From Candidatus Melainabacteria bacterium (GTDB taxonomy: Bacteria; Cyanobacteriota; Vampirovibrionia; Vampirovibrionales; Vampirovibrionaceae), in contig JBFWUP010000004.1 in assembly GCA_050247195.1 (NCBI GenBank), positions 187,522-251,521 of the forward strand: a stretch of 64,000 nt of DNA, given 5' to 3'. Positions 34,591 to 46,414 of the stretch are shown one piece after another (position 1 is the first letter of the stretch; each line of letters begins with the position of its first letter). The position numbers and the translations under genes were made by a program. Below the pieces are notes generated by a model, which saw only the letters and a list, made by a program, of their open reading frames with translations, made no database searches and was not told the origin of the DNA.

Positions 34591-34877
34591 CAATACGTTT
34601 TTCGCTTCCGTCAGCACAGTTTCAGCCCTCACCGGATGAATCCCACCCCCTGTTCTGATCAGGGGCCCTCCGGCAACAAAATAACACAAAGACACCTCAG
34701 CCGCCAAGGCGAACCCGGGCCATCAGGGAAAGGCCCAAGCCTTGGATCCGCTGGCGTTTGGGGTATCTTTGTGTCATAAATACGCCAACGCATTTCAATG
34801 GGGTTTCAACTGCCAGACACTGCGTTCTATTTGTAAGGAAACCAACCGTGACAGACAAAGCCAGAAAGGTACCACCC

Positions 34878-36245
34878 ATGACCCAAGTGAAGACCCCGCC
34901 GGCTTCCAAGGAGTCCAAACGCTCCATTAAGGAACTGCTGGACGAAGCCAAAGCCAAAAAAGTACGCCGCGTCCGACTGCAGTTTGTGGACATGCACGGT
35001 CATCCCAAAAACATGACCATCCACGCCGACCAGCTGGAAAAAGCGCTGAACAACGAAATGATGCTGGATGGCTCATCCATCTCCGGTTTCCGCACCATTG
35101 AAACCTCCGACATGATTTTTGTGCCGGATCGCGACACCTTCCAGGTGATGCCCTGGGAAGAAAACGGCGCCGGCGTCGCCCGCGTCATCTGTGATGTGTA
35201 CAACCCGGACGGCACACCGTTTGACGGCTGCCCCCGCAACAACCTGAAACGCGTGCTCGCCGATGCCCGCAAACTGGGTTTTGTCTTCAACGTAGGTCCC
35301 GAACTCGAGTTCTTCTTTTTCAAAAAAGGACCGGACGGGGAAATCACCACCGAAACCCACGACGTGGCGGGTTACTACGACCTGGGCCCCAACGACCGGG
35401 GCGAACTGGTGCGTGGCGAAATTGCCGACGTGCTGGAACAGCTCGATTTTGAAATGGAAGCCGAGCACCACGAAGTAGCCAAAGGGCAGCACGAGATTGA
35501 CTTCAAATACTCGGATGCTCTGACCCAGGCCGACCGCGTGACCACCGCTAAAATCATCACCCGCCGCATTGCCGCTCTCAACGGCCTGCATGCCACCTTC
35601 CTGCCCAAGCCGGTGTTTGGCGTGAACGGCAGCGGCATGCACTGCAATATGTCGCTGGGCGCGCTGGATGGTAAAAACGTCTTCTTTGACGAGAAAGGCG
35701 ACTACCAGCTGAGCCAGGAAGCCCTGTGGTTTATCGGCGGCATTGTCAAACACATCCGTGGCATCACGGCGCTGACCAACCCGCTGGTGAACAGCTACAA
35801 ACGCCTGGTGCCCGGTTACGAGGCCCCGGTGTACGTGGCCTGGAGTGCGATGAACCGCAGCGCGCTGCTCCGCGTGCCGGCCAAGCGTGGCCCCGGCACC
35901 CGTGTGGAAGTGCGCTCGCCTGACCCGGCCGCCAACCCTTACCTGGCGTTCGCTGCGCTGCTGACCGCAGGTCTGGATGGCGTGAAGAACAAGATTGAGC
36001 CGCCGGAACCGGTGAGCACCAACATCTACAAACTCAGTACCGAAGAGCGCGCGCAGCAGGATATTCTCTCGCTGCCCGGCAGCCTGTTTGAGGCGCTGGA
36101 AGAGTTCAAGAAAAGTGAAGTCGCCAAGGAAGCTCTGGGCGAACACATTTACGCTGAATTCATCAACGCCAAAACCAAAGAATGGGATGCTTACCGGACC
36201 TACGTTTCTCCGTGGGAGCTGGATGAGTACCTCGGTATTTACTAA
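34878..36245 (+). CDS. glnA: Glutamine synthetase type I
   Basis: DGSSISGF, GPELEFF, HHEVAKGQHEIDF, ATFLPKP, NGSGMH, NSYKRLVPGYEAP, EVRSPDP. Confidence 0.97.
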   Translation: MTQVKTPPASKESKRSIKELLDEAKAKKVRRVRLQFVDMHGHPKNMTIHADQLEKALNNEMMLDGSSISGFRTIETSDMIFVPDRDTFQVMPWEENGAGVARVICDVYNPDGTPFDGCPRNNLKRVLADARKLGFVFNVGPELEFFFFKKGPDGEITTETHDVAGYYDLGPNDRGELVRGEIADVLEQLDFEMEAEHHEVAKGQHEIDFKYSDALTQADRVTTAKIITRRIAALNGLHATFLPKPVFGVNGSGMHCNMSLGALDGKNVFFDEKGDYQLSQEALWFIGGIVKHIRGITALTNPLVNSYKRLVPGYEAPVYVAWSAMNRSALLRVPAKRGPGTRVEVRSPDPAANPYLAFAALLTAGLDGVKNKIEPPEPVSTNIYKLSTEERAQQDILSLPGSLFEALEEFKKSEVAKEALGEHIYAEFINAKTKEWDAYRTYVSPWELDEYLGIY

Positions 36246-36265: not shown

Positions 36266-36305
36266 AAACCCCCGCCAAACGTCAATTTAGCGGGGGTTTT
36301 TATTT
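36266..36305 (+). terminator. glnA terminator
   Basis: AAACCCCCGC...GCGGGGGTTTT plus T-rich tail. Confidence 0.8.
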
Positions 36306-36394
36306 GTACTGTTTTGGTTTCCACTGCCACTTTCCGATCTGCTGCGCCTGCGCGCGGGGACTCATTCCTGTTGCAAACAAGCTATAATAGTGAG

Positions 36395-36808
36395 GTGAAA
36401 GACGATCTCGACAACCAGTTTGCTAAGACGGCAACGCGAGTTATTCTCGCAATTTCCACAGGAATACTTGTCGTTGTTTTAGCAATCTGGTCGATGTTTA
36501 TCTTCACCGCTCCTAAGGCCAGCGACTACACCAAAGAGAAAGCGTTGAAGCGAGCCATTCCGGAACTAGCTGCTTTTGCAAAAGAAGAAGGTTTACCCTT
36601 TCAGGAATTCGAAGGCCACGCTTTTATTGCACGCTTTGGTCTCGATTTCACTACATATGATGTTTGCTACAAGCACAATAAGCAGATCTTTTGCTTCGAT
36701 GACTGGACAAATCGAACTGCTATATGGAATATTGATTCGGAACTCGATGACGACTATCGTCAGGAATTTGAGCGCGCTTTTCATCAGAAATTATTAGTAG
36801 GTAACTAG
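36395..36808 (+). CDS. Putative immunity protein 1 (N-terminal TM anchor, periplasmic domain with 2 Cys)
   Basis: 137 aa from GTG. First 51 aa identical to 37569-37982. Convergent with, and overlapping by 15 bp, the orphan toxin tip. Confidence 0.7.
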   Translation: MKDDLDNQFAKTATRVILAISTGILVVVLAIWSMFIFTAPKASDYTKEKALKRAIPELAAFAKEEGLPFQEFEGHAFIARFGLDFTTYDVCYKHNKQIFCFDDWTNRTAIWNIDSELDDDYRQEFERAFHQKLLVGN

Positions 36809-37548
36809 TCTTTTATAAACGGAATGAGTATTGGAAAGAGCATAAATCCTGTAATCATTTCCCAGGTTCAGTTTGTTAACTGTTCTAACAACAGGCTCAA
36901 CATAGAATTCTCTACTGTTGGGATTAAAATCAAATTCATCAAACTCGTTTCGTCTTTCTTGTCCTTTTCTTGGTTCAACATGGCTATTGATTTCTATTGT
37001 TTGGTTATCGTGTCTCACAAAAACTATAGTATTCGTCATGTCGAATGTCAGGTTTCCAAACATCCAAAATCGTGGACTGTTCTTTGGGATATAGGCTCGA
37101 ACGCTACTAAACGCAGTCTTAAAATGTATAGTCGTCACAGTGTTGTTCGTCTCTCGGACAACGGACACATCCTTGCCGTGCCGCTTAAAGAATTGCTGAA
37201 CACGGGCAGGACTGTTGTTGAGGTTCGTGATCACCGCAATTGTATCGGGGTGGATACCCTGTAATAGCTTTTCAGGGTCAACACTGTCGGAAAAACTCAG
37301 ACCGCGAAGATCAATCTCAACCGGCTGTCCATTCCCCTGAAAGTAATGGTCCCATAGTTTGTTGTTCAGGTCATACGCATTTTCATACCGGATGAGTTTT
37401 CTGGGTCGGAAGATTGTTTTAGTTTTGGTTGCTGGCTGAATGGGCATCGCTTTTGCCTTGCTTGGTTCAGGTGGCTTTACCTGCTGCTCCCCCGCCGCGC
37501 GGGCCTGCCTGCGCGCCTCGTACTACCGCCAGCGGATCTCCTGCGCCT
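36794..37548 (-). pseudogene. Orphan colicin M-like toxin C-terminal module
   Basis: Copy of the 3' part of 37965-39629 with no N-terminus and an in-frame TAG at 37523-37525. Open from 37447 to the stop. HYFQGNG, FGNLTF, DEFDFNPNSR, GNDYRI. Confidence 0.75.
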
Positions 37549-37568
37549 AAACAAGCTATAATAGTGAG

Positions 37569-37982
37569 GTGAAAGACGATCTCGACAACCAGTTTGCTAA
37601 GACGGCAACGCGAGTTATTCTCGCAATTTCAACAGGAATACTTGTCGTTGTTTTAGCAATCTGGTCGATGTTTATCTTCACCGCTCCTAAGGCCAGCGAC
37701 TACACCAAAGAGAAAGCGTTGGAACATGCAAAGCCGTACTTAAAAGAATTTTCTTTAAAAAAGCATATCTCTTTAGATGATTTTGAAGGCCCGGTATTTC
37801 AACAATCTCTTGGGCAGGAATTCCCTACTTATGTTGTGTGTTACAAAAACAAGCACTACATATTTTGCTTCGAACATTGGATGAATACATGGTATTACAA
37901 TGATCTGAGTTTGCCACATGAACCTTATATGCAGAAACATCTTGATGAGTTGTTTCAAAAGACATCAGAAAGAGAATCTTGA
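37569..37982 (+). CDS. Putative immunity protein 2 (cognate to the full-length toxin)
   Basis: 137 aa, TM RVILAISTGILVVVLAIWSMFIF, YVVCYK...IFCF. Convergent with, and overlapping by 18 bp, the toxin gene. Confidence 0.7.
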   Translation: MKDDLDNQFAKTATRVILAISTGILVVVLAIWSMFIFTAPKASDYTKEKALEHAKPYLKEFSLKKHISLDDFEGPVFQQSLGQEFPTYVVCYKNKHYIFCFEHWMNTWYYNDLSLPHEPYMQKHLDELFQKTSERES

Positions 37983-39629
37983 TCGGTATATTGACCGACT
38001 ATTTCTCTTTGAGAAAATCTTATAATCAGTTCCAGTACTTAATTTATCAATAAACCGGACAGTAATTTCGATAGGTAGAGATCGATCTCTTGGGTTAAAA
38101 TCAAATTCATCAAAAATATCTTTTTTTGTTTTGTCATCATATTGTTTGGACACTATCGTACTGTCTAATTCAATAATTCTATCCTGGTGATTAACAAACA
38201 AGATATTGTCCACCATATCAAATGTAAGGCTGCCGAAAGCCCAGAATGTTGGTTCATAAATAGGGATATTGGTGGTGACATCAAAAAATGGTTTCTTAAA
38301 ATGTATCGTCGTCACAGTGTTGTTGGGCTCTCGGACAACGGACACATCCTTGCCATGTTGCTTAAAAAACTGCTGAATAAGTGCAGGCGTGTTATTGAGG
38401 TTCGTGATCACCTCAATTGTATTGGGGTGTATGCCCTTTAATAGCTTTTTAGGGTCAACACTGTCGGAAAAACTCAGACCGCGAAGATCAATCTCAACCG
38501 GCTGTCCATTCCCCTGAAAGTAATGGTCCCATAGTTTGTTGTTCAGGTCATACGCATTTTCATACCGGATGAGTTTTCTGGGTCGGAAGATTGTTTTCGT
38601 TTTGGTTGCTGGCTGAATGGGCATCGCTTTTGCCTTGCTTGGTTCAGGTAGCTTTACCTGCTGCTCCCCCGCCGCGCGGGCCTGCCTGCGCGCCTCGTAC
38701 TGCCGCCAGCGGATCTCCTGCGCCTGCGCGCGCGCAAGTTCCGTCTGCGCAATCTCGTTATCCAGCCGGGCCTCCAGCGCCATCCGGCTTAAGTCCGCCT
38801 GTCGTTGCAAGGCTTCGCTCGCCATCAGGTCGTGCATGCTGACCGGTCTTTGCGCCATCTCCAGGTTGTTCTGTATCCAGTCCGCGTCTTCGGTAACGGG
38901 TGCTACATTGCTGGCGCCACTGCCTTTCAGCTCGGCCAGACCACCCGCTGTAAAGGCGGCGGATGTCGCTTCCACCGGATCCATCACCACCGGCGGGACG
39001 TCATGCTGAGTGACCGGGCCGCTGAACGGCGAATAGACGGCGGCAATCGCGCGGGCCATATGCCCTGTCTGCGGGTGATTCAGCGAGGCATCGATCTGAT
39101 CGCGGTAGGCCTCCTGAATCGTCTGCACCGTTTGCGCATAGGCCTGGCTGACCCGGTTGCTGCGGTTCGTGTCGCGATCGGGAACCGAACGGATGGGCGT
39201 CTCCGGCGCCGGCTCGCCAGCCCATTGTGGCGCGGGTTGCAGAGCCATCCTCCACACGTCACGCGCATACGGCGTGGGCTGCGCATTGTCCCAGACCAGC
39301 TGTTTCAGCGCTGCGCCAATCTGACCCAGCGCCGCTTCAAGCGGTCGCGTGTCCACTGACGACGGTGTCGGAGCGGGTTCATCATTCCCGCCACCCTCAT
39401 CATCGTCACCATCCTCGCTGTCATCTGAATCATCATCCTGAGGCTCCGGCTCATGGTCGGGTGGCGGCGCTCCGGTTTTTTCAACACGCCCCTCCAGCAC
39501 CCCTGGCATTGCCGACAGGTATTGCAGGGTGGTTCCCAGATCATGCCCCGGATAATGCGCCTCGGTAAAGTCTCGGAACAGGTTCATGATGTCGGTTTCA
39601 TCCCATATTCTCTTGGAAACAATCGTCAT
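37965..39629 (-). CDS. Polymorphic toxin with C-terminal colicin M-like (lipid II-degrading) domain
   Basis: GC-rich unknown N-terminal region. AT-rich C-terminus with HYFQGNG, FGSLTF, DEFDFNPRDR..E...R and GTDYKI, matching the colicin M motif order. Confidence 0.75.
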   Translation of the reverse strand: MTIVSKRIWDETDIMNLFRDFTEAHYPGHDLGTTLQYLSAMPGVLEGRVEKTGAPPPDHEPEPQDDDSDDSEDGDDDEGGGNDEPAPTPSSVDTRPLEAALGQIGAALKQLVWDNAQPTPYARDVWRMALQPAPQWAGEPAPETPIRSVPDRDTNRSNRVSQAYAQTVQTIQEAYRDQIDASLNHPQTGHMARAIAAVYSPFSGPVTQHDVPPVVMDPVEATSAAFTAGGLAELKGSGASNVAPVTEDADWIQNNLEMAQRPVSMHDLMASEALQRQADLSRMALEARLDNEIAQTELARAQAQEIRWRQYEARRQARAAGEQQVKLPEPSKAKAMPIQPATKTKTIFRPRKLIRYENAYDLNNKLWDHYFQGNGQPVEIDLRGLSFSDSVDPKKLLKGIHPNTIEVITNLNNTPALIQQFFKQHGKDVSVVREPNNTVTTIHFKKPFFDVTTNIPIYEPTFWAFGSLTFDMVDNILFVNHQDRIIELDSTIVSKQYDDKTKKDIFDEFDFNPRDRSLPIEITVRFIDKLSTGTDYKIFSKRNSRSIYRSRFSF

Positions 39630-39807: not shown

Positions 39808-42800
39808 TTATTTGGCTGAGGAGGTACTTGCCGAACCGCTGTCGCCACGACCCTTGCCACCGATAATCGGCGACAGGAAATCGATAGCCGGACGGACAAT
39901 CATCCCGCCGCCGAAGCGCCAGCGGTCAAACGAACTCCCGGCATCGGTGTAATCCATATTGCCGTAGAGGGCCAGCCAGTCCGTCAGGTTCATAATCAGG
40001 TTGGCGTCAAACGAGGCAGTCATCGCCGTGTTCTCTTTGCTGGTCAGGCCATGGCCCCGGTTGAACGTCTGCACGCCCAGGCTGCCGCCCAGCTTGTACT
40101 CCAGCAATTTGTTCCACAGGTTGCCGCGGAAATCCAGCCGGCCGGCGTTCTGGAAGAAGGCTTTCGGGCTGAAGTACCCGCCAAAGTCGTAACCGTCCGC
40201 CGCAAGAATAGCAGGGGCCACACTGACCACCGGGCGGGTATTGCCCGCGCGGGTGACATCGAAAAACCCATTGGTGGTGTTTTTCTCATACCCAAAGTAC
40301 AGGGATTCAAACCCGAGACGCACCTTGTGGTTTTCGGCATAGTGCCAGTCGTAACCGCCACTCAGGTAAGCCAGGTTTTTGTAGTTGGTCGGCACGCGCT
40401 CCCCGTCCACATAGGCCCACTGGTAACCGGCATTCAGGTCAAAATCGTTGTTAAACGGGTGTGTGTTCAGTTCGGCAAACAGCCCGGTCTCGCGGGACTG
40501 GCCCACCAGCTTGCCGGCATAGCGGCCCATGTCCGGCACAATCCCCACCTGCGCCAGGTAGGAGTTGTACTGCGGCTGACGGAAGGAGCCCACCTTGGCC
40601 GCAATGGCATCGTTAAATTTGTACTCAATGCCACCCTGGTAGGTAATGTTGGAACTGCTGGACTGGTTAAACTGCGTGATGGCCATATCTCCATCCAGCG
40701 TCAGCCGGTCGGTGAGGCGGTAGGTCGCTCCCCAGGAATACGCCTGGCTCCAGGTGGCGTGTGGGCCACGCGCATAGGGCCCGGGGATGGAGTAATGGTA
40801 GGGATCCACGCTGACGCGCGCGCGCAGTTGCGGCGTGAGGGAAAAGGCCAGCTGGTTGGGAAAACCCCAGTAACGGAACTTACCCGTGGATTTTTCGCCA
40901 TCCTGCGTGCTGTAGAAAAAGCCGCCACGCAGCAGGGGACGCAGATCATTTTCCAGGCCCTCGCTCATACGAGTCAGGTCATCGTTGCGGAAACGGCCCA
41001 GCCCCGACAGCAGCGGGTTGGTGTCATAGTTAATCGCACTGAAAATCCCGTACTCAGGGTTGTTCTGAAGAAAGGCCAGTTCATCACTCTGTGCCTGGCT
41101 GCTGCCTGCCGTTTCATCCAGCACCGCCACGCCGGTCACAATGTGATCTTTGGAAAAAGCCACATCGCTCTGAATGCGATCCAGTTGTTTCTGGGAGGTT
41201 TTCTGAACGGCTTTCAGCGATTCGATCGCCATGTTCAGGGAGTCCATATCCGCCTGCAGTCTGGCCAGATCCGGGTGCACCCCAGCCTGCGGCGCCACCG
41301 GTGACGGGGGGGTCACCTCATCTAGGGAGACACGCTCTTCCACGGTTTTACGCAGGTAACTGGGCGCCTGTGATTGTTTCTCAGGCGCCGGTTCAGCGGC
41401 GGTATCCGCCGGCTGGTAGGGGAGAATGCTGTAATCAAACACGGTATCCGACGGTGACACGCCGGTCTGGATCACTTCATAATCCACCGGAATCAGCCAG
41501 TCACCGTTCAGGTCAGCCGGCCAGCCGTAGCCGGTAAAGTTGATGAGATGGCGGACCTTTTTCATCACATCAAACGCGTCATCATAGCGCCCGAGAAATT
41601 TGTTGACCTGCGCCAGCGCGACGGCCACATCCATTTCACCGGGATGGCGCTCAAACGCTTCTTCCAGATAGTCTTTGGCCACCAACTGCTTGCCGCTCCA
41701 CATCAGGGCGTAGCCTTTGGTCACAATGGCGTCAATGTTGTTGGGATTGATCGCCAGAACGGCATCACACTGCTCAATGGCCGCACTGTAGTGGCGTTCA
41801 TAGGAGAGCAGCTTTCCCAGGGCAATGCGGGCCGCCACATTGCCGGGATTTTCCTCAATGGCCTGGCGCAGCAGTTTCACCGCATCGTCCCGGTGACTTT
41901 TGTGCATCAGCAGCAGGTCCGTCCACTCCTGCTGCACCCGGTCATCACCCGGGTAGCGTTTGAGTAGATCATGATACAGATCCAGCGCTTCCTTAAAGTA
42001 GTCCGGATCGTTACGGTAGGCGCGGGCCACGGTCAGACGAATCGCGTAGTTATCCGGGTAGACGTTGGCCAGTTCCTGATAGAAGGAGATTTCCTTCACG
42101 GTGGCCTCATGCCAGAGCAGGGTCCGCTCCATACCTTTCAGCCACTGATCCTGGTGTGCCGGATCTTTCTGGGAGAGCGCCAGAAACATCCGGATGGCGT
42201 CATTCTGCCGGCTCTTCTGGTACGACAGAAAATCGGCATAGGCCCCTTCAACCTGGGTATCGCCCGGATGATCGGCCATCAGCTTCTGGAACGCCTGTTC
42301 GCTGGCCGTGAGGTTGGTTTTTTCGTTTTTCAGCATCTCCAGGTAATTGCTGCGGATGCTTTCAGGATCCTGAACATCTGCCGCACTCAGCGCCAGCTGA
42401 TAATATTTGTTGGCCTCACTAAACTGGCCGGTGGCCTCATAGCGTTTGGCCAGACGGAAAGCCGCCATGGCGTTGCCAGTGTCCTGGCTCAGTGATTCGG
42501 CGTACAGACGATCCATCAGGCTGCTGTCTTTCATCGACAGACTGCTCAGGTAGTCGGCAAACTCCAGTTTTTCGTCACTGCTCAGCTGGCCGGCTTCATA
42601 CAGCATTTTAAACGCCGCCATGGCCTGGGGGGCCTGCTGCGTATGCACATACGAACGCGCCATGCGCAGCTGAATATATTTTTCATTCTGTGTGGCTGCA
42701 GGCAACGACTGATCAAAGGTCAGCGCATCACTGTAGCGGCCCATATCAAAGGTCAGGCCTGCCATCCGCTCTTTCATGGCGGCGGCATCCCCGCCAGTCA

Positions 42801-43524
42801 GGCTGAGAATGCGGGGCCTGATGCGATCATACATCTCACCGGCCTCACCGGGGTGTTTGGCCTTATGCAATGCCAGGGTGTAATCCTGTTGCAGTTTCAG
42901 ATCGGAGGAGGATCCGGCGCTCAGGGTATCGCGGTAAACGGCAACCGCATCTTCGGCATGGCCGGTTTCGCTCAGAACCTTGGCGTACACCGCCTGCCAC
43001 GCCCGGTCTCCGGCGTATTTGGCGGCAATGGGCTGGGCGTAATCGTATGCTTCGGCAAAACGCCCCTCCCAGGAGAGCACTTCCGTGGCGCGTTTGGCAT
43101 GATCGGTATTACCCGGCTCCAGCATCGCCGCCTGCTTCAGGAAGGCAATGGCCTGCGGGCGGGTGGTTTTATCCCAGCTCAGCAACTCACCCAGGTTGGT
43201 CAGCGCCTCCAGATTGCCGGGGTTGAGTTGATGCACTTTATAATAGGTCTGCCGGGCGACTTCCAGATCGGCAGGCGTGCCCTGCTTGCGGTATGCCCGG
43301 GCCAGCCAGAGCTGGGCATCTTCGCTTTCGGGATGATCCGCCGCCGCCTGCCTGAGGAAGGGCAGGGCTTTTTCAATATAGCCTTTGTTGTAAAACACCA
43401 TGCCCTGCTTATATTCCGGGCCCAGATCGGCCGCTTCCGTGGTGAGCATCCACCAGGGCAGAACCAGCAGGCCGGCGGTCAGCAGCAACGGCATGGACCA
43501 GCGGGTGGCGGTGGGTTTCAGCAT
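39808..43524 (-). CDS. BcsC-like exported TPR protein with C-terminal beta-barrel
   Basis: Signal peptide, many TPRs (LGELLSW, LGKLLSY), aromatic beta-strand-rich C-terminus with YFSP motif, downstream of bcsA. Confidence 0.75.
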   Translation of the reverse strand: MLKPTATRWSMPLLLTAGLLVLPWWMLTTEAADLGPEYKQGMVFYNKGYIEKALPFLRQAAADHPESEDAQLWLARAYRKQGTPADLEVARQTYYKVHQLNPGNLEALTNLGELLSWDKTTRPQAIAFLKQAAMLEPGNTDHAKRATEVLSWEGRFAEAYDYAQPIAAKYAGDRAWQAVYAKVLSETGHAEDAVAVYRDTLSAGSSSDLKLQQDYTLALHKAKHPGEAGEMYDRIRPRILSLTGGDAAAMKERMAGLTFDMGRYSDALTFDQSLPAATQNEKYIQLRMARSYVHTQQAPQAMAAFKMLYEAGQLSSDEKLEFADYLSSLSMKDSSLMDRLYAESLSQDTGNAMAAFRLAKRYEATGQFSEANKYYQLALSAADVQDPESIRSNYLEMLKNEKTNLTASEQAFQKLMADHPGDTQVEGAYADFLSYQKSRQNDAIRMFLALSQKDPAHQDQWLKGMERTLLWHEATVKEISFYQELANVYPDNYAIRLTVARAYRNDPDYFKEALDLYHDLLKRYPGDDRVQQEWTDLLLMHKSHRDDAVKLLRQAIEENPGNVAARIALGKLLSYERHYSAAIEQCDAVLAINPNNIDAIVTKGYALMWSGKQLVAKDYLEEAFERHPGEMDVAVALAQVNKFLGRYDDAFDVMKKVRHLINFTGYGWPADLNGDWLIPVDYEVIQTGVSPSDTVFDYSILPYQPADTAAEPAPEKQSQAPSYLRKTVEERVSLDEVTPPSPVAPQAGVHPDLARLQADMDSLNMAIESLKAVQKTSQKQLDRIQSDVAFSKDHIVTGVAVLDETAGSSQAQSDELAFLQNNPEYGIFSAINYDTNPLLSGLGRFRNDDLTRMSEGLENDLRPLLRGGFFYSTQDGEKSTGKFRYWGFPNQLAFSLTPQLRARVSVDPYHYSIPGPYARGPHATWSQAYSWGATYRLTDRLTLDGDMAITQFNQSSSSNITYQGGIEYKFNDAIAAKVGSFRQPQYNSYLAQVGIVPDMGRYAGKLVGQSRETGLFAELNTHPFNNDFDLNAGYQWAYVDGERVPTNYKNLAYLSGGYDWHYAENHKVRLGFESLYFGYEKNTTNGFFDVTRAGNTRPVVSVAPAILAADGYDFGGYFSPKAFFQNAGRLDFRGNLWNKLLEYKLGGSLGVQTFNRGHGLTSKENTAMTASFDANLIMNLTDWLALYGNMDYTDAGSSFDRWRFGGGMIVRPAIDFLSPIIGGKGRGDSGSASTSSAK

Positions 43525-43573
43525 GGGGGTGGCTCCTATTGCGTTTTCAGGGGGAAGGGGTGGTCGGTTTCTG

Positions 43574-46414
43574 TCAGCCGATGAGCGTGTGGAAGGCCTT
43601 GCTTTCCTCGGGGGCATGCAACTGCTGACTGATGCTGTCGAGCGTTTTCATATCCAGGCCATGGAAATAGATCAGCGCCATATAAGCGTGTCCGTGCGGC
43701 TGGGCGTCCATCACCCGGCCCGGATACACGCCCTGAACGTTCTGCTCGGCGTCCCAGATAATCTGCACGCTGACCTGTTCCTCGGGTTCGAGGATGTCGC
43801 CGTTCTTCAGGAGGACAATCAACCCGAGTTCACTGATTTCCTGAGTGGAGGCTTCCAGCCAGGTGTTGTTTTTGTTTTTGATGCGGCACTGAATGAATTT
43901 GTTGACCGACGGGGCCACGCGGATGAGGCCATCCTTGGGACGGTAGATGTTGCGGATGAGCTCCAGACGCTGATCGCGTGTCAGCTGGGTGAATTTCACG
44001 CCCGCCCGTATCTGCCCGCCGCCCAGATCATCGAGCCGGATAATGGTGCCGTTCACTTCGCTCACCTCGCCCGAGGGCCACTGCACCCGAACCGAGACCA
44101 TCTGACCCAGATCCAGGGAGACGTCCTTGCGCTTGAGATAAACCGAGATGCCGGACTCACTCACGTCATCCGAATGGCCCATCATATAGGTGCCATCCAC
44201 GTTCAGCACACAGGAGAGGGTAACCTGAAAACGCGGCGCGTTGCGTTTGAGGGGTTTCTCCATAAACCCGGCGATACGGAAGGGTGTCAGCAGGAGATCC
44301 CAGAAGGAATCCACGGAAGGCCGGTAGACATAATCATCCCCCCACACATCGGCAGAGCCGAACATGTGCCGGATGAGGCGCTGGTGCTGAACCTCATTGC
44401 GCTCCACAATCTTGAAACCAATCTGGTGCTGGTTATGCTCGTTCAGCGTGCTTCTCACCGCCTGGACAGAGATCACCGTCGTCTCGTTGATCTCCCAGTC
44501 CATCAGCTTCAGCTGCACCTGGCCGGAAATCGGCACGGGCTCGTTAAACACCACCGCCACACCGCTTTCGCTGATGTTGGTGGTATAGCCCACAGCAATG
44601 GAGCCATCCAACAACTTGATCTCGCAACGGATACGGCGGGGAATCCGGGGCGTCAGGCGGAACTGGGGGCGCTCCTGCGCCACGTAAATGGCGCCCAGCA
44701 GCAGCACCAGGTTATAGGCCGCCCAGAACAGGTTGGTATAAATCCCTCCGGCGTACTCGGGCGTGTAAATACCGCGGGAAATGGCCATACCGATGCCCAC
44801 AATGGTCAGCGCCGTCACAATGACCTGCGGAAAAACCACCCGCCAGTTAAAGTTCAGCCGTTCTTTCAGACCACCCTTGGGCGTCACGCGGAATTTGGCG
44901 CGTTTGGGCGACAGGAAGGTAAACGTGGTGGTCAGTGTCATGTAAATACAGCAGGCCGCCTCATGCACCTCGGACCAGAAGGCGTGACGCACGCCCTTGG
45001 AGATCAGCGTGTAGCCCAGAAAAGCGCACACAAAGCTCGGCACGTAATAAATCAGCACTTCCACAAAGCCCGAGTTGATGGTTTTGTAGCCGAACAACAG
45101 AAAGAACAGCGGGGCGATCATAAAAATCAGGCGCGGCAGGCCATGGAAGAAGTACCACATCCCGGAGAAATAGCAGATGCGTTGCGGCAGACGGAGGCCT
45201 TTAATCAGCAGGGGATTGTCCAGCACGAAAATCTGGGTCATACCGCGCGCCCAGCGCAGGCGCTGTTTAATAAAGTCGGCAAAACTCTCCTGGGAGAGGC
45301 CGGCAGCGAGATCGCGGTTATAAAAGAGCGATTTCCAGCCCTTGCTGTGCAGGCGCAGGCCGGTATGCACGTCTTCGGTGATGGTTTCCACAGCGAACCC
45401 GCCAATACCCATCAGGGCATCGCGACGGAAAATTGCGCCGCTGCCGCCGAAGAACGCCGCACCCCAGTAATCGTTACCGGGTTCAATGACGTGGAAGAAC
45501 AGATCCTGCTCATTGTTCATGGTTTCCGTGGCCAGCAGGTTGCGCTGGAACGGATCCTTGGTGAAGAAGTGCTGGGGCGTCTGGACAAAGCCCAGTTTGT
45601 TATCCGTCAGAAAGAAGCCCACGACTTCCTGCAGAAAGGACTTGCAGGGAACATGATCCGCATCAAACACCAGCACCAGATCGCTCTGGGTGTGATCCAT
45701 GGCGTTGTTCAGGTTGCCGGCCTTAGCGTGGATGTTCTGGGTGCGCGCAATGTAGTTGGCGCCCAGCTTCTCGGCCAGTTCGCGCATTTCGGGCCGGTTG
45801 CCGTCATCCAGCAGGTTCACCGTTTTGCGGGGATAGTCAATGCTCATACAGCCCACCAGGGTGCGGTATAGCACGCTCACGGGCTCGTTATAGGTACAGA
45901 CCATCACATCCACACTGGGCAGTTGCTCCGGCTGGTAGCGCGCCAGACTGACCGGCTTGTGGCTCGTTTCGCCATACATCTGAAAATAGCCCAGCAGCAT
46001 GGCGAAAAAGGCCATCACCTCAGCCAGGAAGATGGTGACGGAAATGGCGATGGCAACCGGTGAGCTGAGATCCAGCGTGAAAAAACCGCGCCACAACAGG
46101 TGACGCAGCATCACCACGGTGGTCAGCACCATCACAAAATGGCGGGCCCTTGGAAAGAAGAAATACGTGGCCAGCATCACGCCGATAAACAGCAGGGACA
46201 GAAAAGCCTGCAGCATCAGCGGCAAACCCAGCGTCAGGGTGGGAAACAGCGGCCGAGACAGACTGCCGGTATAGCTGTAAGCCAGCTCGGCAATGGTCTG
46301 GGCGCCGGCATTGGGCGTAACGCCGGACGCTGAGGTGGGGAACTGCCCGAGCAGGAACAACAGCCCCACAGAAAGCAGGGCAAATGCCACAAGGACCACT
46401 ACCTTTTTGATCAT
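43574..46414 (-). CDS. bcsA: Cellulose synthase catalytic subunit with three PilZ-like domains
   Basis: TYNEP, LLDDG, HAKAGN, FDAD, QTPQ, TED, QRLRW, FRVTPK. RxxxR and (D/N)xSxxG motifs repeated in the C-terminus. Confidence 0.9.
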   Translation of the reverse strand: MIKKVVVLVAFALLSVGLLFLLGQFPTSASGVTPNAGAQTIAELAYSYTGSLSRPLFPTLTLGLPLMLQAFLSLLFIGVMLATYFFFPRARHFVMVLTTVVMLRHLLWRGFFTLDLSSPVAIAISVTIFLAEVMAFFAMLLGYFQMYGETSHKPVSLARYQPEQLPSVDVMVCTYNEPVSVLYRTLVGCMSIDYPRKTVNLLDDGNRPEMRELAEKLGANYIARTQNIHAKAGNLNNAMDHTQSDLVLVFDADHVPCKSFLQEVVGFFLTDNKLGFVQTPQHFFTKDPFQRNLLATETMNNEQDLFFHVIEPGNDYWGAAFFGGSGAIFRRDALMGIGGFAVETITEDVHTGLRLHSKGWKSLFYNRDLAAGLSQESFADFIKQRLRWARGMTQIFVLDNPLLIKGLRLPQRICYFSGMWYFFHGLPRLIFMIAPLFFLLFGYKTINSGFVEVLIYYVPSFVCAFLGYTLISKGVRHAFWSEVHEAACCIYMTLTTTFTFLSPKRAKFRVTPKGGLKERLNFNWRVVFPQVIVTALTIVGIGMAISRGIYTPEYAGGIYTNLFWAAYNLVLLLGAIYVAQERPQFRLTPRIPRRIRCEIKLLDGSIAVGYTTNISESGVAVVFNEPVPISGQVQLKLMDWEINETTVISVQAVRSTLNEHNQHQIGFKIVERNEVQHQRLIRHMFGSADVWGDDYVYRPSVDSFWDLLLTPFRIAGFMEKPLKRNAPRFQVTLSCVLNVDGTYMMGHSDDVSESGISVYLKRKDVSLDLGQMVSVRVQWPSGEVSEVNGTIIRLDDLGGGQIRAGVKFTQLTRDQRLELIRNIYRPKDGLIRVAPSVNKFIQCRIKNKNNTWLEASTQEISELGLIVLLKNGDILEPEEQVSVQIIWDAEQNVQGVYPGRVMDAQPHGHAYMALIYFHGLDMKTLDSISQQLHAPEESKAFHTLIG

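Follow-up and report, generated by a model that had tools for sequence, protein, structure and literature searches.

The window analysed in this study is a stretch of 64,000 nucleotides from a Candidatus Melainabacteria genome of the order Vampirovibrionales (positions 187522-251521 of contig C4 of genome G000, which is 2.82 Mb long, 58% GC and 93.7% complete), and an AT-rich stretch in it, between glnA and a bcsC-like gene, holds four genes arranged as two tail-to-tail pairs. We read these genes as a colicin M (ColM)-like bacteriocin with its immunity partner, accompanied by an orphan cassette of the same kind that could be switched onto the full-length toxin gene; for this whole reading, functional cassette switching included, the probability is put at roughly 0.55. 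The full-length pair comprises a toxin open reading frame (ORF) of 554 aa (37965-39629, minus strand) and its cognate immunity gene 2 (137 aa, GTG at 37569; 37569-37982, plus strand; E 3e-52 with the family hidden Markov model, HMM). The orphan pair comprises a toxin C-terminal module, delimited by ORF and alignment as a 217-aa ORF from an internal Met (36794-37447, minus strand) that repeats the last 40% of the 554-aa ORF, and immunity gene 1 (137 aa from GTG 36395; 36395-36808, plus strand; ORF and family HMM), for which a longer ORF from 36263 would cross the glnA terminator. Each 137-aa plus-strand ORF converges on one minus-strand ORF, and the 3' ends overlap by 15 bp (36794-36808) and 18 bp (37965-37982), the lengths given in an earlier account made from the letters alone (the sequence-only reading). 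That account had also taken the minus-strand product for a toxin and the plus-strand product for a periplasmic immunity protein, an assignment that fold, motif and conserved linkage support.

The toxin domain and its convergent partner

The 554-aa toxin is composed of a unique N-terminal part of about 136 aa, a central region shared at 87-91% identity with two paralogs on other contigs that carry different tips (query residues 137-322 and 183-325), and, at the C-terminus, a colicin M-like domain (37965-38642, minus strand), 225 aa of which were modelled with AlphaFold2 (AF2; pLDDT 83.3, pTM 0.74). A word-index search of 5.8 billion proteins returned only the three paralogs of G000 itself, and the protein atlas gave no usable match for the C-terminal domain. 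An exhaustive HMMER search over 1.84 billion representatives yielded 19 relatives at E<=1e-3, a number which shows that such toxins escape domain-based annotation.

The fold evidence rests on the predicted AF2 model (pLDDT 83.3). The top two Foldseek matches of this model were pectocin M1 (E 6e-4, probability 1.00) and syringacin M (E 2.4e-2), and rows 1-11 of the VIA-align search were all ColM-family catalytic domains, with Z values of 9.9, 9.3, 9.0, 7.9, 7.8, 7.2, 6.9, 6.6, 6.2, 6.0 and 5.9, the first unrelated chain following at Z 5.1. Pectocin M2 (4n58_A) was aligned over 152 residues with Z 9.9 and a root-mean-square deviation (rmsd) of 4.3, colicin M (2xtr_A) over 151 residues with Z 7.9 and rmsd 3.4, while syringacin M and PaeM scored Z 6.9 and 6.6. 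Over all ColM rows, 137-159 residues were aligned, and model residues of about 19-225 fell on chain residues of about 119-271. The model of the C-terminal domain thus has the ColM catalytic-domain fold.

When 18 C-terminal domains were aligned, F136, G137, D181, F182 and R187 were the only invariant positions. The family motif is [DE]-x-[FY]-D-F-x(4-6)-R, in which D, F and R are invariant in 18/18 sequences, the D and R being the only invariant polar pair in the family. The putative catalytic motif of the full toxin is DEFDFNPRDR (aa 507-516; 38082-38111, minus strand; D510, F511 and R516 invariant in the alignment) and that of the orphan, read from the sequence, is DEFDFNPNSR (36911-36940, minus strand). 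A profile of the family searched against all PDB sequences had colicin M among its nine weak matches and placed the D-x-F-D-F-N-x4-R-G stretch on colicin M residues 226-258, with the motif on 226-236. According to the available part of a 2018 perspective, the published ColM signature is DXYDX5HR, and degenerate forms without the H exist, such as DXFKX5R, whose activity is unknown (PMC5821083). Three concordant lines, each weak to moderate and none a significant sequence match, suggest that the C-terminal domain is a remote colicin M homologue; together with a periplasmic target and the identity of the small protein as immunity partner, we consider this likely.

Eleven members of the family to which the plus-strand ORFs belong were aligned, each with an N-terminal membrane helix or a lipoprotein-type signal (L-Q-G-C in the homologous locus L016), followed by a domain of about 70 residues with the conserved stretches F-x-G-P-x-F and V-C-Y-K-x(4-5)-F-C-Y-D-D-W. 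The AF2 model of immunity protein 2 (pLDDT 89.3) consists of a membrane helix, a helix, four strands and a C-terminal helix, with two Cys. Foldseek returned nothing below E 0.16 for this model, and the fold is a common one, the best PDB matches being cystatin-, PepSY- and VirB8-like domains at Z 5-7. The strongest argument for the assignment is linkage: when HMMs of both families were run on the six-frame ORFs of all fetched loci, 14 of the 16 copies of the toxin domain, from 13 genomes, had an immunity-family gene immediately 3' on the other strand (3 in G000 and 11 of 13 elsewhere). The remaining two copies, both in genome G016, have a convergent ORF with multiple transmembrane segments instead, so that a linked convergent membrane or periplasmic immunity gene, as in ColM systems, is present in 16/16 copies; the partners in G016 recall the PmiA-type partners of Pseudomonas described in the available text of PMC5821083. 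Tandem immunity genes occur in G020 and G013, and two-domain fusions in G017, G039 and G011. Prediction of a complex between the toxin domain and the periplasmic part of the partner gave a score of 0.53, against 0.01 for the best of three controls, and lends weak support: the runs agreed in at least 88% of contacts with a partner pLDDT of at least 82, and the mark used is reached by 58/80 solved complexes and 2/110 mismatched pairs, with scores of 0.60 or less in 7 of the 80 and in both mismatches. The plus-strand protein is therefore likely, within the joint assignment given above, to be a membrane-anchored or lipoprotein periplasmic immunity partner. Its family is new, and by comparison of their features its functional analogy to Cmi, the colicin M immunity protein, appears close.

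A TATAAT box is kept in three copies, 6 nt before the immunity start codon, and because of this conservation and spacing the immunity transcript is probably made from its own promoter and leaderless; a sigma-70 scan paired no -35 element with the TATAAT boxes. Two small minus-strand ORFs just past the toxin stops (36593-36784 and 37773-37958) were considered as co-directional immunity genes and rejected, because they are antisense to plus-strand ORFs whose family is conserved, carries signal sequences and has a confidently modelled fold.

Several features were observed in the N-terminal part of the toxin. An acidic low-complexity stretch, rich in D, E and S and with PEP repeats, lies in the N-terminal third (39380-39450), and a PEPEP-rich counterpart occurs in the homologues of G020 and G024 (L016 and L034). 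At the N-terminus itself (39480-39629) and in the relatives L013, L015, L024 and P0008, the motif P-x-L-x-G-R-[VI]-E is found, sometimes twice, and could be a delivery or uptake signal. Three members begin with M-T-[ILF]-V-[SP], which we take to bear a loose resemblance to a TonB box.

Arms, cores and the orphan cassette

The two cassettes form tandem units that abut directly, at 36375-37548 (1174 bp) and 37549-38725 (1177 bp), in agreement with the two units of about 1.17 kb of the sequence-only reading. The left arms (36375-36547 in unit 1, with TATAAT at 36383-36388 and immunity codons 1-51, and 37549-37721 in unit 2, with TATAAT at 37557-37562) are identical at 172 of 173 positions, so that the 173-bp arm with a -10 box and 51 codons seen before was correctly delimited and its TATAAT is perfect; the left arm of unit 1 is also about 100% identical to the copy on contig C1. 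Variable core 1 (36548-37116, GC 0.39, containing the 15-bp overlap) encodes the periplasmic domain of the immunity protein together with the toxin domain's C-terminal half, and variable core 2 (37722-38293, GC 0.34) contains the 18-bp overlap. The right arms (37117-37548 and 38294-38725) are identical at 409 of 432 positions, the unit 1 arm encoding the linker and the N-terminal half of the toxin domain and including a copy of a 36-nt handle (37502-37537). Within the 432 bp, the outer 280 bp are identical at 276/280 positions and the inner 152 bp at 133/152 (19 mismatches). A right arm of about 275 bp, described before as toxin linker, thus holds for its near-identity, but the right arm as a whole is not linker alone, because the toxin domain's N-terminal half is encoded by its inner ~300 bp. 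The middle is divergent and AT-rich, as had been claimed: between units the cores are about 40-60% identical, with 0.40-0.74 identity in 50-column windows, and their GC contents are 0.39 and 0.34, where the arms have about 0.44 and 0.50-0.52, the remainder of the long gene 0.62 and the window as a whole 0.58.

Substitution analysis by the Nei-Gojobori method counted a single synonymous change per arm and no non-synonymous one (dS about 0.03), dS 0.36 with dN/dS 0.22 in the inner right arm, and saturation in the cores (pS 0.63 for immunity and 0.82 for toxin; dN 0.65 and 0.54). Because identical synonymous sites stand beside saturated ones, the contrast between arms and cores cannot have arisen by selection on the proteins or by duplication with divergence, and requires recombination, either import of foreign cores or conversion of the arms. 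Sliding-window identity and dN/dS therefore bear out the proposal that the arms were homogenised or the cores imported.

That the repeat is genuine DNA was checked against three runs of one study, possibly of the source sample, in which 67-91% of the sampled words were present. Independently built contigs hold core 1 (36518-37180) and core 2 (37692-38480) with 0 differences and at similar depth, the depth of the left-arm unitig is about three times that of the cores, fitting three genomic copies, and in run X3 a 111-nt contig spans the unit junction (37495-37605) with 0 differences. An assembly artefact, the chance for which the sequence-only reading had asked for long reads, was rejected on these grounds, the cores differing at about half of their bases; since the runs belong to one study and maybe to the source sample, they exclude an artefact of one assembler only and are not independent support. 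A join from 37222 to 38672, seen in one contig in each of two runs, was not counted as a recombinant, for it skips 1449 bp and not the expected 1177; it probably belongs to the C1 paralog, and the letters between are not known.

The orphan tip keeps all five invariant residues of the family. Upstream of it the frame ends in a TAG that replaces the handle's Gln codon (A at 37525, G in the full gene) and lies 23 nt from the outer end of the right arm. The tip has no start of its own before Met-1, and a promoter scan found no promoter of its own. The handle of the full toxin (38679-38714, minus strand), which encodes IRWRQYEARRQA, ends the conserved central region; of its five copies in the genome, full genes hold three and the 5' edges of orphans the other two. 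In the two complete orphans, which lie at unlinked loci, homology begins within about 10 nt of the handle (window 37502-37537 and C8:73359-73394). Left of unit 1 there is a degenerate relic of the handle region (36323-36356; 28/34 identical to 38699-38732, with a 15-nt exact core whose 15-mer has 2 matches in the window against 0.01 expected). The relic lies 18 nt left of unit 1 and 25 nt off register with the units, and could have been left by the original insertion or by an older cassette since deleted.

Within this one genome the scaffold is polymorphic, and orphans occur at all three of its loci. On contig C1, the paralog (238821-240308, 495 aa) has an unidentified tip, for which a PDB sequence search gave no match, followed by a co-directional 132-aa ORF that is a candidate for a cytoplasmic-type immunity gene; after this pair come a 5'-truncated ColM-like orphan and a convergent immunity gene (array 237571-240308, L009:2071-4808), so that co-directional and convergent modules are combined in one array. 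On contig C8 the paralog (71746-72921) has another tip (Pfam Ntox44 at E 0.13 only; one PDB sequence match at E 0.32) and a convergent 122-aa ORF with multiple transmembrane segments that overlaps its 3' end by 4 bp; a short orphan follows, whose tip is of the same type and whose convergent ORF (62 aa) has a single transmembrane segment (locus 71746-73957, L010:2746-4957). The C8 paralog seems to be without the N-terminal part, its homology starting at query residue 183, right after rpoD. The C1 copy of the ColM-like cassette matches unit 1 at 95-100% identity over the left arm and over 37132-37200, follows unit 2 for about 40 bp more of the immunity gene (0.88-0.93 against 0.55-0.75 to unit 1), and is nearer to unit 1 across much of the toxin core (0.65-0.82 against 0.42-0.68 to unit 2). 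Since the C1 copy is a mosaic of units 1 and 2, recombination among the cassettes has happened.

Proposed mechanism and its alternatives

Known colicin M members cleave the peptidoglycan precursor lipid II in the periplasm, and by analogy the modular bacteriocin-like toxin of the window would reach the periplasm of a related cell and cleave lipid II there. The producer would be protected by a periplasmic immunity protein tethered to the inner membrane by its N-terminal helix, or by a lipoprotein signal in relatives. The displaced orphan pair, lying downstream of the active one, would supply a promoterless toxin tip together with an immunity gene that is complete and probably expressed; as this gene is whole and its promoter is the same, immunity of the cell to allele 1 is probable too. 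The conserved 5' end of the immunity gene and the conserved 5' part of the toxin gene would bound the variable core, and since the genes lie tail to tail, their putatively specificity-bearing 3' halves form one contiguous variable core. Homologous recombination in the arms would explain why near-identical arms stand beside saturated cores. A crossover anywhere in the 432-bp right arms would delete 1177 bp and leave a full-length gene with tip 1 beside immunity 1, and it would also remove the TAG unless it fell within the last 23 nt; the anatomy of the arms therefore agrees with the earlier proposal that a single right-arm crossover would fuse the orphan tip to the full N-terminus, with the TAG lost as well. 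Exchange of the core alone would need crossovers in both arms, within the genome or with incoming DNA, and the former would be possible because C1 and C4 share both arms.

Several results weigh against this mechanism or parts of it. In Pfam-A searches with hmmscan at E<=1, neither the full toxin nor the orphan had any match, PF14859 (Colicin_M) included, and NCBIfam gave no match for the long protein at E<=0.1. Foldseek TM-scores were low (0.38 and 0.33), Z values of 8-10 are only modestly above the background of 7-8 stated for VIA-align, and the colicin M match of the PDB profile, at E 0.65, is not significant alone. The motif is without the His of the HR pair, and its loop is one residue shorter in the two copies of the window. 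As for the partner, Cmi (2xgl_A) ranked 37th among structural matches of the immunity model (Z 4.2, 72 aligned, rmsd 3.7), and there was no Pfam match at E<=1 (PF13995) and none to Cmi in the PDB profile search. No signal peptide, secretion domain or secretion system was identified for the toxin, and the 93.7%-complete genome has two TonB_C matches but yielded no TonB-dependent receptor barrel (PF00593), so that the colicin M uptake route is not supported. Finally, no arm-joining recombinant was seen in the contigs of the three runs.

In one alternative, the C-terminal domain would resemble colicin M in fold only and act on a different periplasmic target, or the small protein would not be an immunity protein. 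In its favour, no significant ColM sequence match was obtained, the motif His is absent and the complex score is weak. We judge this improbable, as the motif of an acidic residue, x, an aromatic residue, D, x5/6 and R stands at the equivalent place and supplies the sole invariant polar pair of the family, and a tail-to-tail, periplasm-facing partner is what periplasm-acting ColM toxins have in the available text of PMC5821083. The want of a recombinant contig bears rather on switching, for the two-unit structure could be a passive relic, formed by tandem duplication and then replacement or decay, in which the orphan is dead and immunity 1 guards against neighbours with allele 1. Such a history would account for an orphan with no promoter of its own in the scan and an upstream frame closed by TAG, for the 5' truncation of the C1 orphan, and for the loci L034 and L035, where intact immunity genes are kept beside isolated toxin fragments as decay would give. 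Yet the 217-aa ORF of the orphan tip is complete and lacks none of the five invariant residues, the lone stop upstream of it lies 23 nt from the outer arm end where almost any crossover would remove it, and decay would not keep arms at 99% identity over 280 bp, synonymous sites included; a passive relic is for these reasons rather unlikely.

Recombination itself might be of another kind, with the 36-nt handle recognised by a site-specific mechanism of its own that moves the cassettes in place of general homologous recombination. The start of orphan homology within about 10 nt of the handle at two unlinked loci and the degenerate handle relic left of unit 1 speak for such a mechanism. The left unit edges, however, are without a matching site, and no recombinase gene adjoins the array (the neighbours are glnA and bcsC/bcsA). 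Moreover, conserved coding sequence stops with the handle and the variable domain begins, so that homologous exchange would come to its end there in any case, as it would at the conserved motifs that precede the toxin tips of contact-dependent inhibition (CDI) and Rhs systems; site-specific movement is on these grounds highly improbable.

On the preferred reading of a ColM-like pair with an exchangeable orphan cassette, a broader proposal may be made, at odds somewhat below even: the Vampirovibrionales may hold an unrecognised clade of colicin M-like lipid II toxins, with a new scaffold, a periplasmic immunity family and true swap cassettes, in which orphans form a handle- and arm-marked reservoir for joint change of specificity within the genome and between strains. 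If this were true, colicin M-type lipid II attack would be extended from gamma- and beta-proteobacteria to a deep, non-photosynthetic cyanobacterial lineage of predators, and the array would be a compact natural case of convergent gene order putting both specificity determinants into one exchangeable block. The added immunity family would also bear on how ColM immunity works, a mechanism termed elusive in the available part of the 2018 perspective (PMC5821083).

Setting, distribution and comparison with known systems

The array is bordered on the left by glnA (34758-36245, plus strand), whose terminator hairpin and T-run (36269-36305, plus strand, read from the sequence) mark the left limit of the inserted AT-rich array, and on the right by the bcsC-like gene (TPR and BCSC_C; 39808-43617, minus strand), which is preceded by bcsA with PilZ (43574-46414, minus strand). 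This cellulose synthase pair (39808-46414) lies directly upstream of the toxin gene in the same direction, the toxin array sitting at the 3' end of the operon.

Among 301 genomes of the class, the C-terminal domain was found in 13, all in one order: 10/24, 1/19 and 1/5 in three families, plus G000, with 0/252 in the other families sampled. The relatives are metagenome-assembled genomes (MAGs) of Vampirovibrionales, Vampirovibrio sp. and V. chlorellavorus, together with one labelled Coleofasciculaceae. The contig of this last MAG (L024/L017, labelled Coleofasciculaceae cyanobacterium) has a toxin-immunity pair of the family, and the genome is assigned to the family of G000; the label may be wrong, or the contig may have been binned in error. 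Its toxin gene appears split across two frames. Locus L014 is a mixed array, in which a C8-type tip with a multi-transmembrane ORF is followed by a ColM-like orphan with its immunity gene, and L034 and L035 have isolated toxin fragments with one or two immunity genes; with L014/L032, L034 and L035, orphan arrays or isolated tips with immunity genes are present in other genomes. Given these varied arrays, relatives do not share an invariant two-unit locus, the finding that would have spoken against a swap cassette.

In the available parts of two ColM reviews (PMC5821083 and PMC8469651), the immunity gene of ColM-type bacteriocins normally lies downstream, on the opposite strand and with its own promoter, and cma and cmi are published in the same tail-to-tail layout. 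The novelty that the sequence-only reading, which compared the locus with the usually co-directional CDI/Rhs/Maf arrays, implied for the convergent layout is therefore withdrawn: the layout is the published ColM norm in these texts and a family trait here, and once the ColM family was identified, convergent order was to be expected. With the known ColM types (pectocins M1/M2, syringacin M, pyocin M/PaeM and burkhocins) the toxin shares the catalytic fold, a motif at the same place, a modular build of N-terminal, central and C-terminal parts, recombination of modules and the lack of a signal peptide. Unlike them, its domain is missed by PF14859, shows 12-17% identity in structural alignments and has no motif His, its N-terminal and central parts are without known domain, no receptor barrel was found in the genome, the host belongs to Vampirovibrionales and not to gamma- or beta-proteobacteria, and orphan cassettes are present. 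The words 'orphan' and 'cyanobacteri' are absent from the available text of both reviews; among the literature matches listed, a Vampirovibrio bacteriocin was not the subject of any title or abstract opening, and no colicin M in Melainabacteria, Vampirovibrio or cyanobacteria was reported. The immunity protein has in common with Cmi, a YebF-like protein, an N-terminal anchor, a small periplasmic alpha/beta domain with a four-strand sheet, a Cys pair and a convergent gene, and differs from it in the absence of sequence similarity, a weak and unspecific structural match, and relatives with lipoprotein signals, tandem genes and two-domain fusions.

The orphan arrays of CDI (cdiA-CT/cdiI), Rhs and MafB systems likewise keep a displaced tip and immunity gene downstream with a conserved upstream stretch that permits recombination onto the full gene, and carry several toxin types on one scaffold. 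Their modules are co-directional, and VENN or PxxxxDPxGL boundaries are examples of their pre-toxin markers. Here, in contrast, the immunity gene is convergent and both variable halves are contiguous between two arms, and no CDI, Rhs or Maf domains were found in the three paralogs with Pfam and NCBIfam. Pore-forming colicins and S-type pyocins resemble the present system in their variable N-terminus on the receptor side, their conserved middle and their exchanged killing domain, to which an immunity gene is linked, and differ in that no sequence or domain match was obtained and the killing domain here is ColM-like; immunity genes of pore formers also lie on the opposite strand, such as cbi in the available part of PMC8469651. 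In summary, the tail-to-tail layout is not new, whereas the lineage, the immunity family, the scaffold, the orphan cassettes at three loci and the 36-nt handle are.

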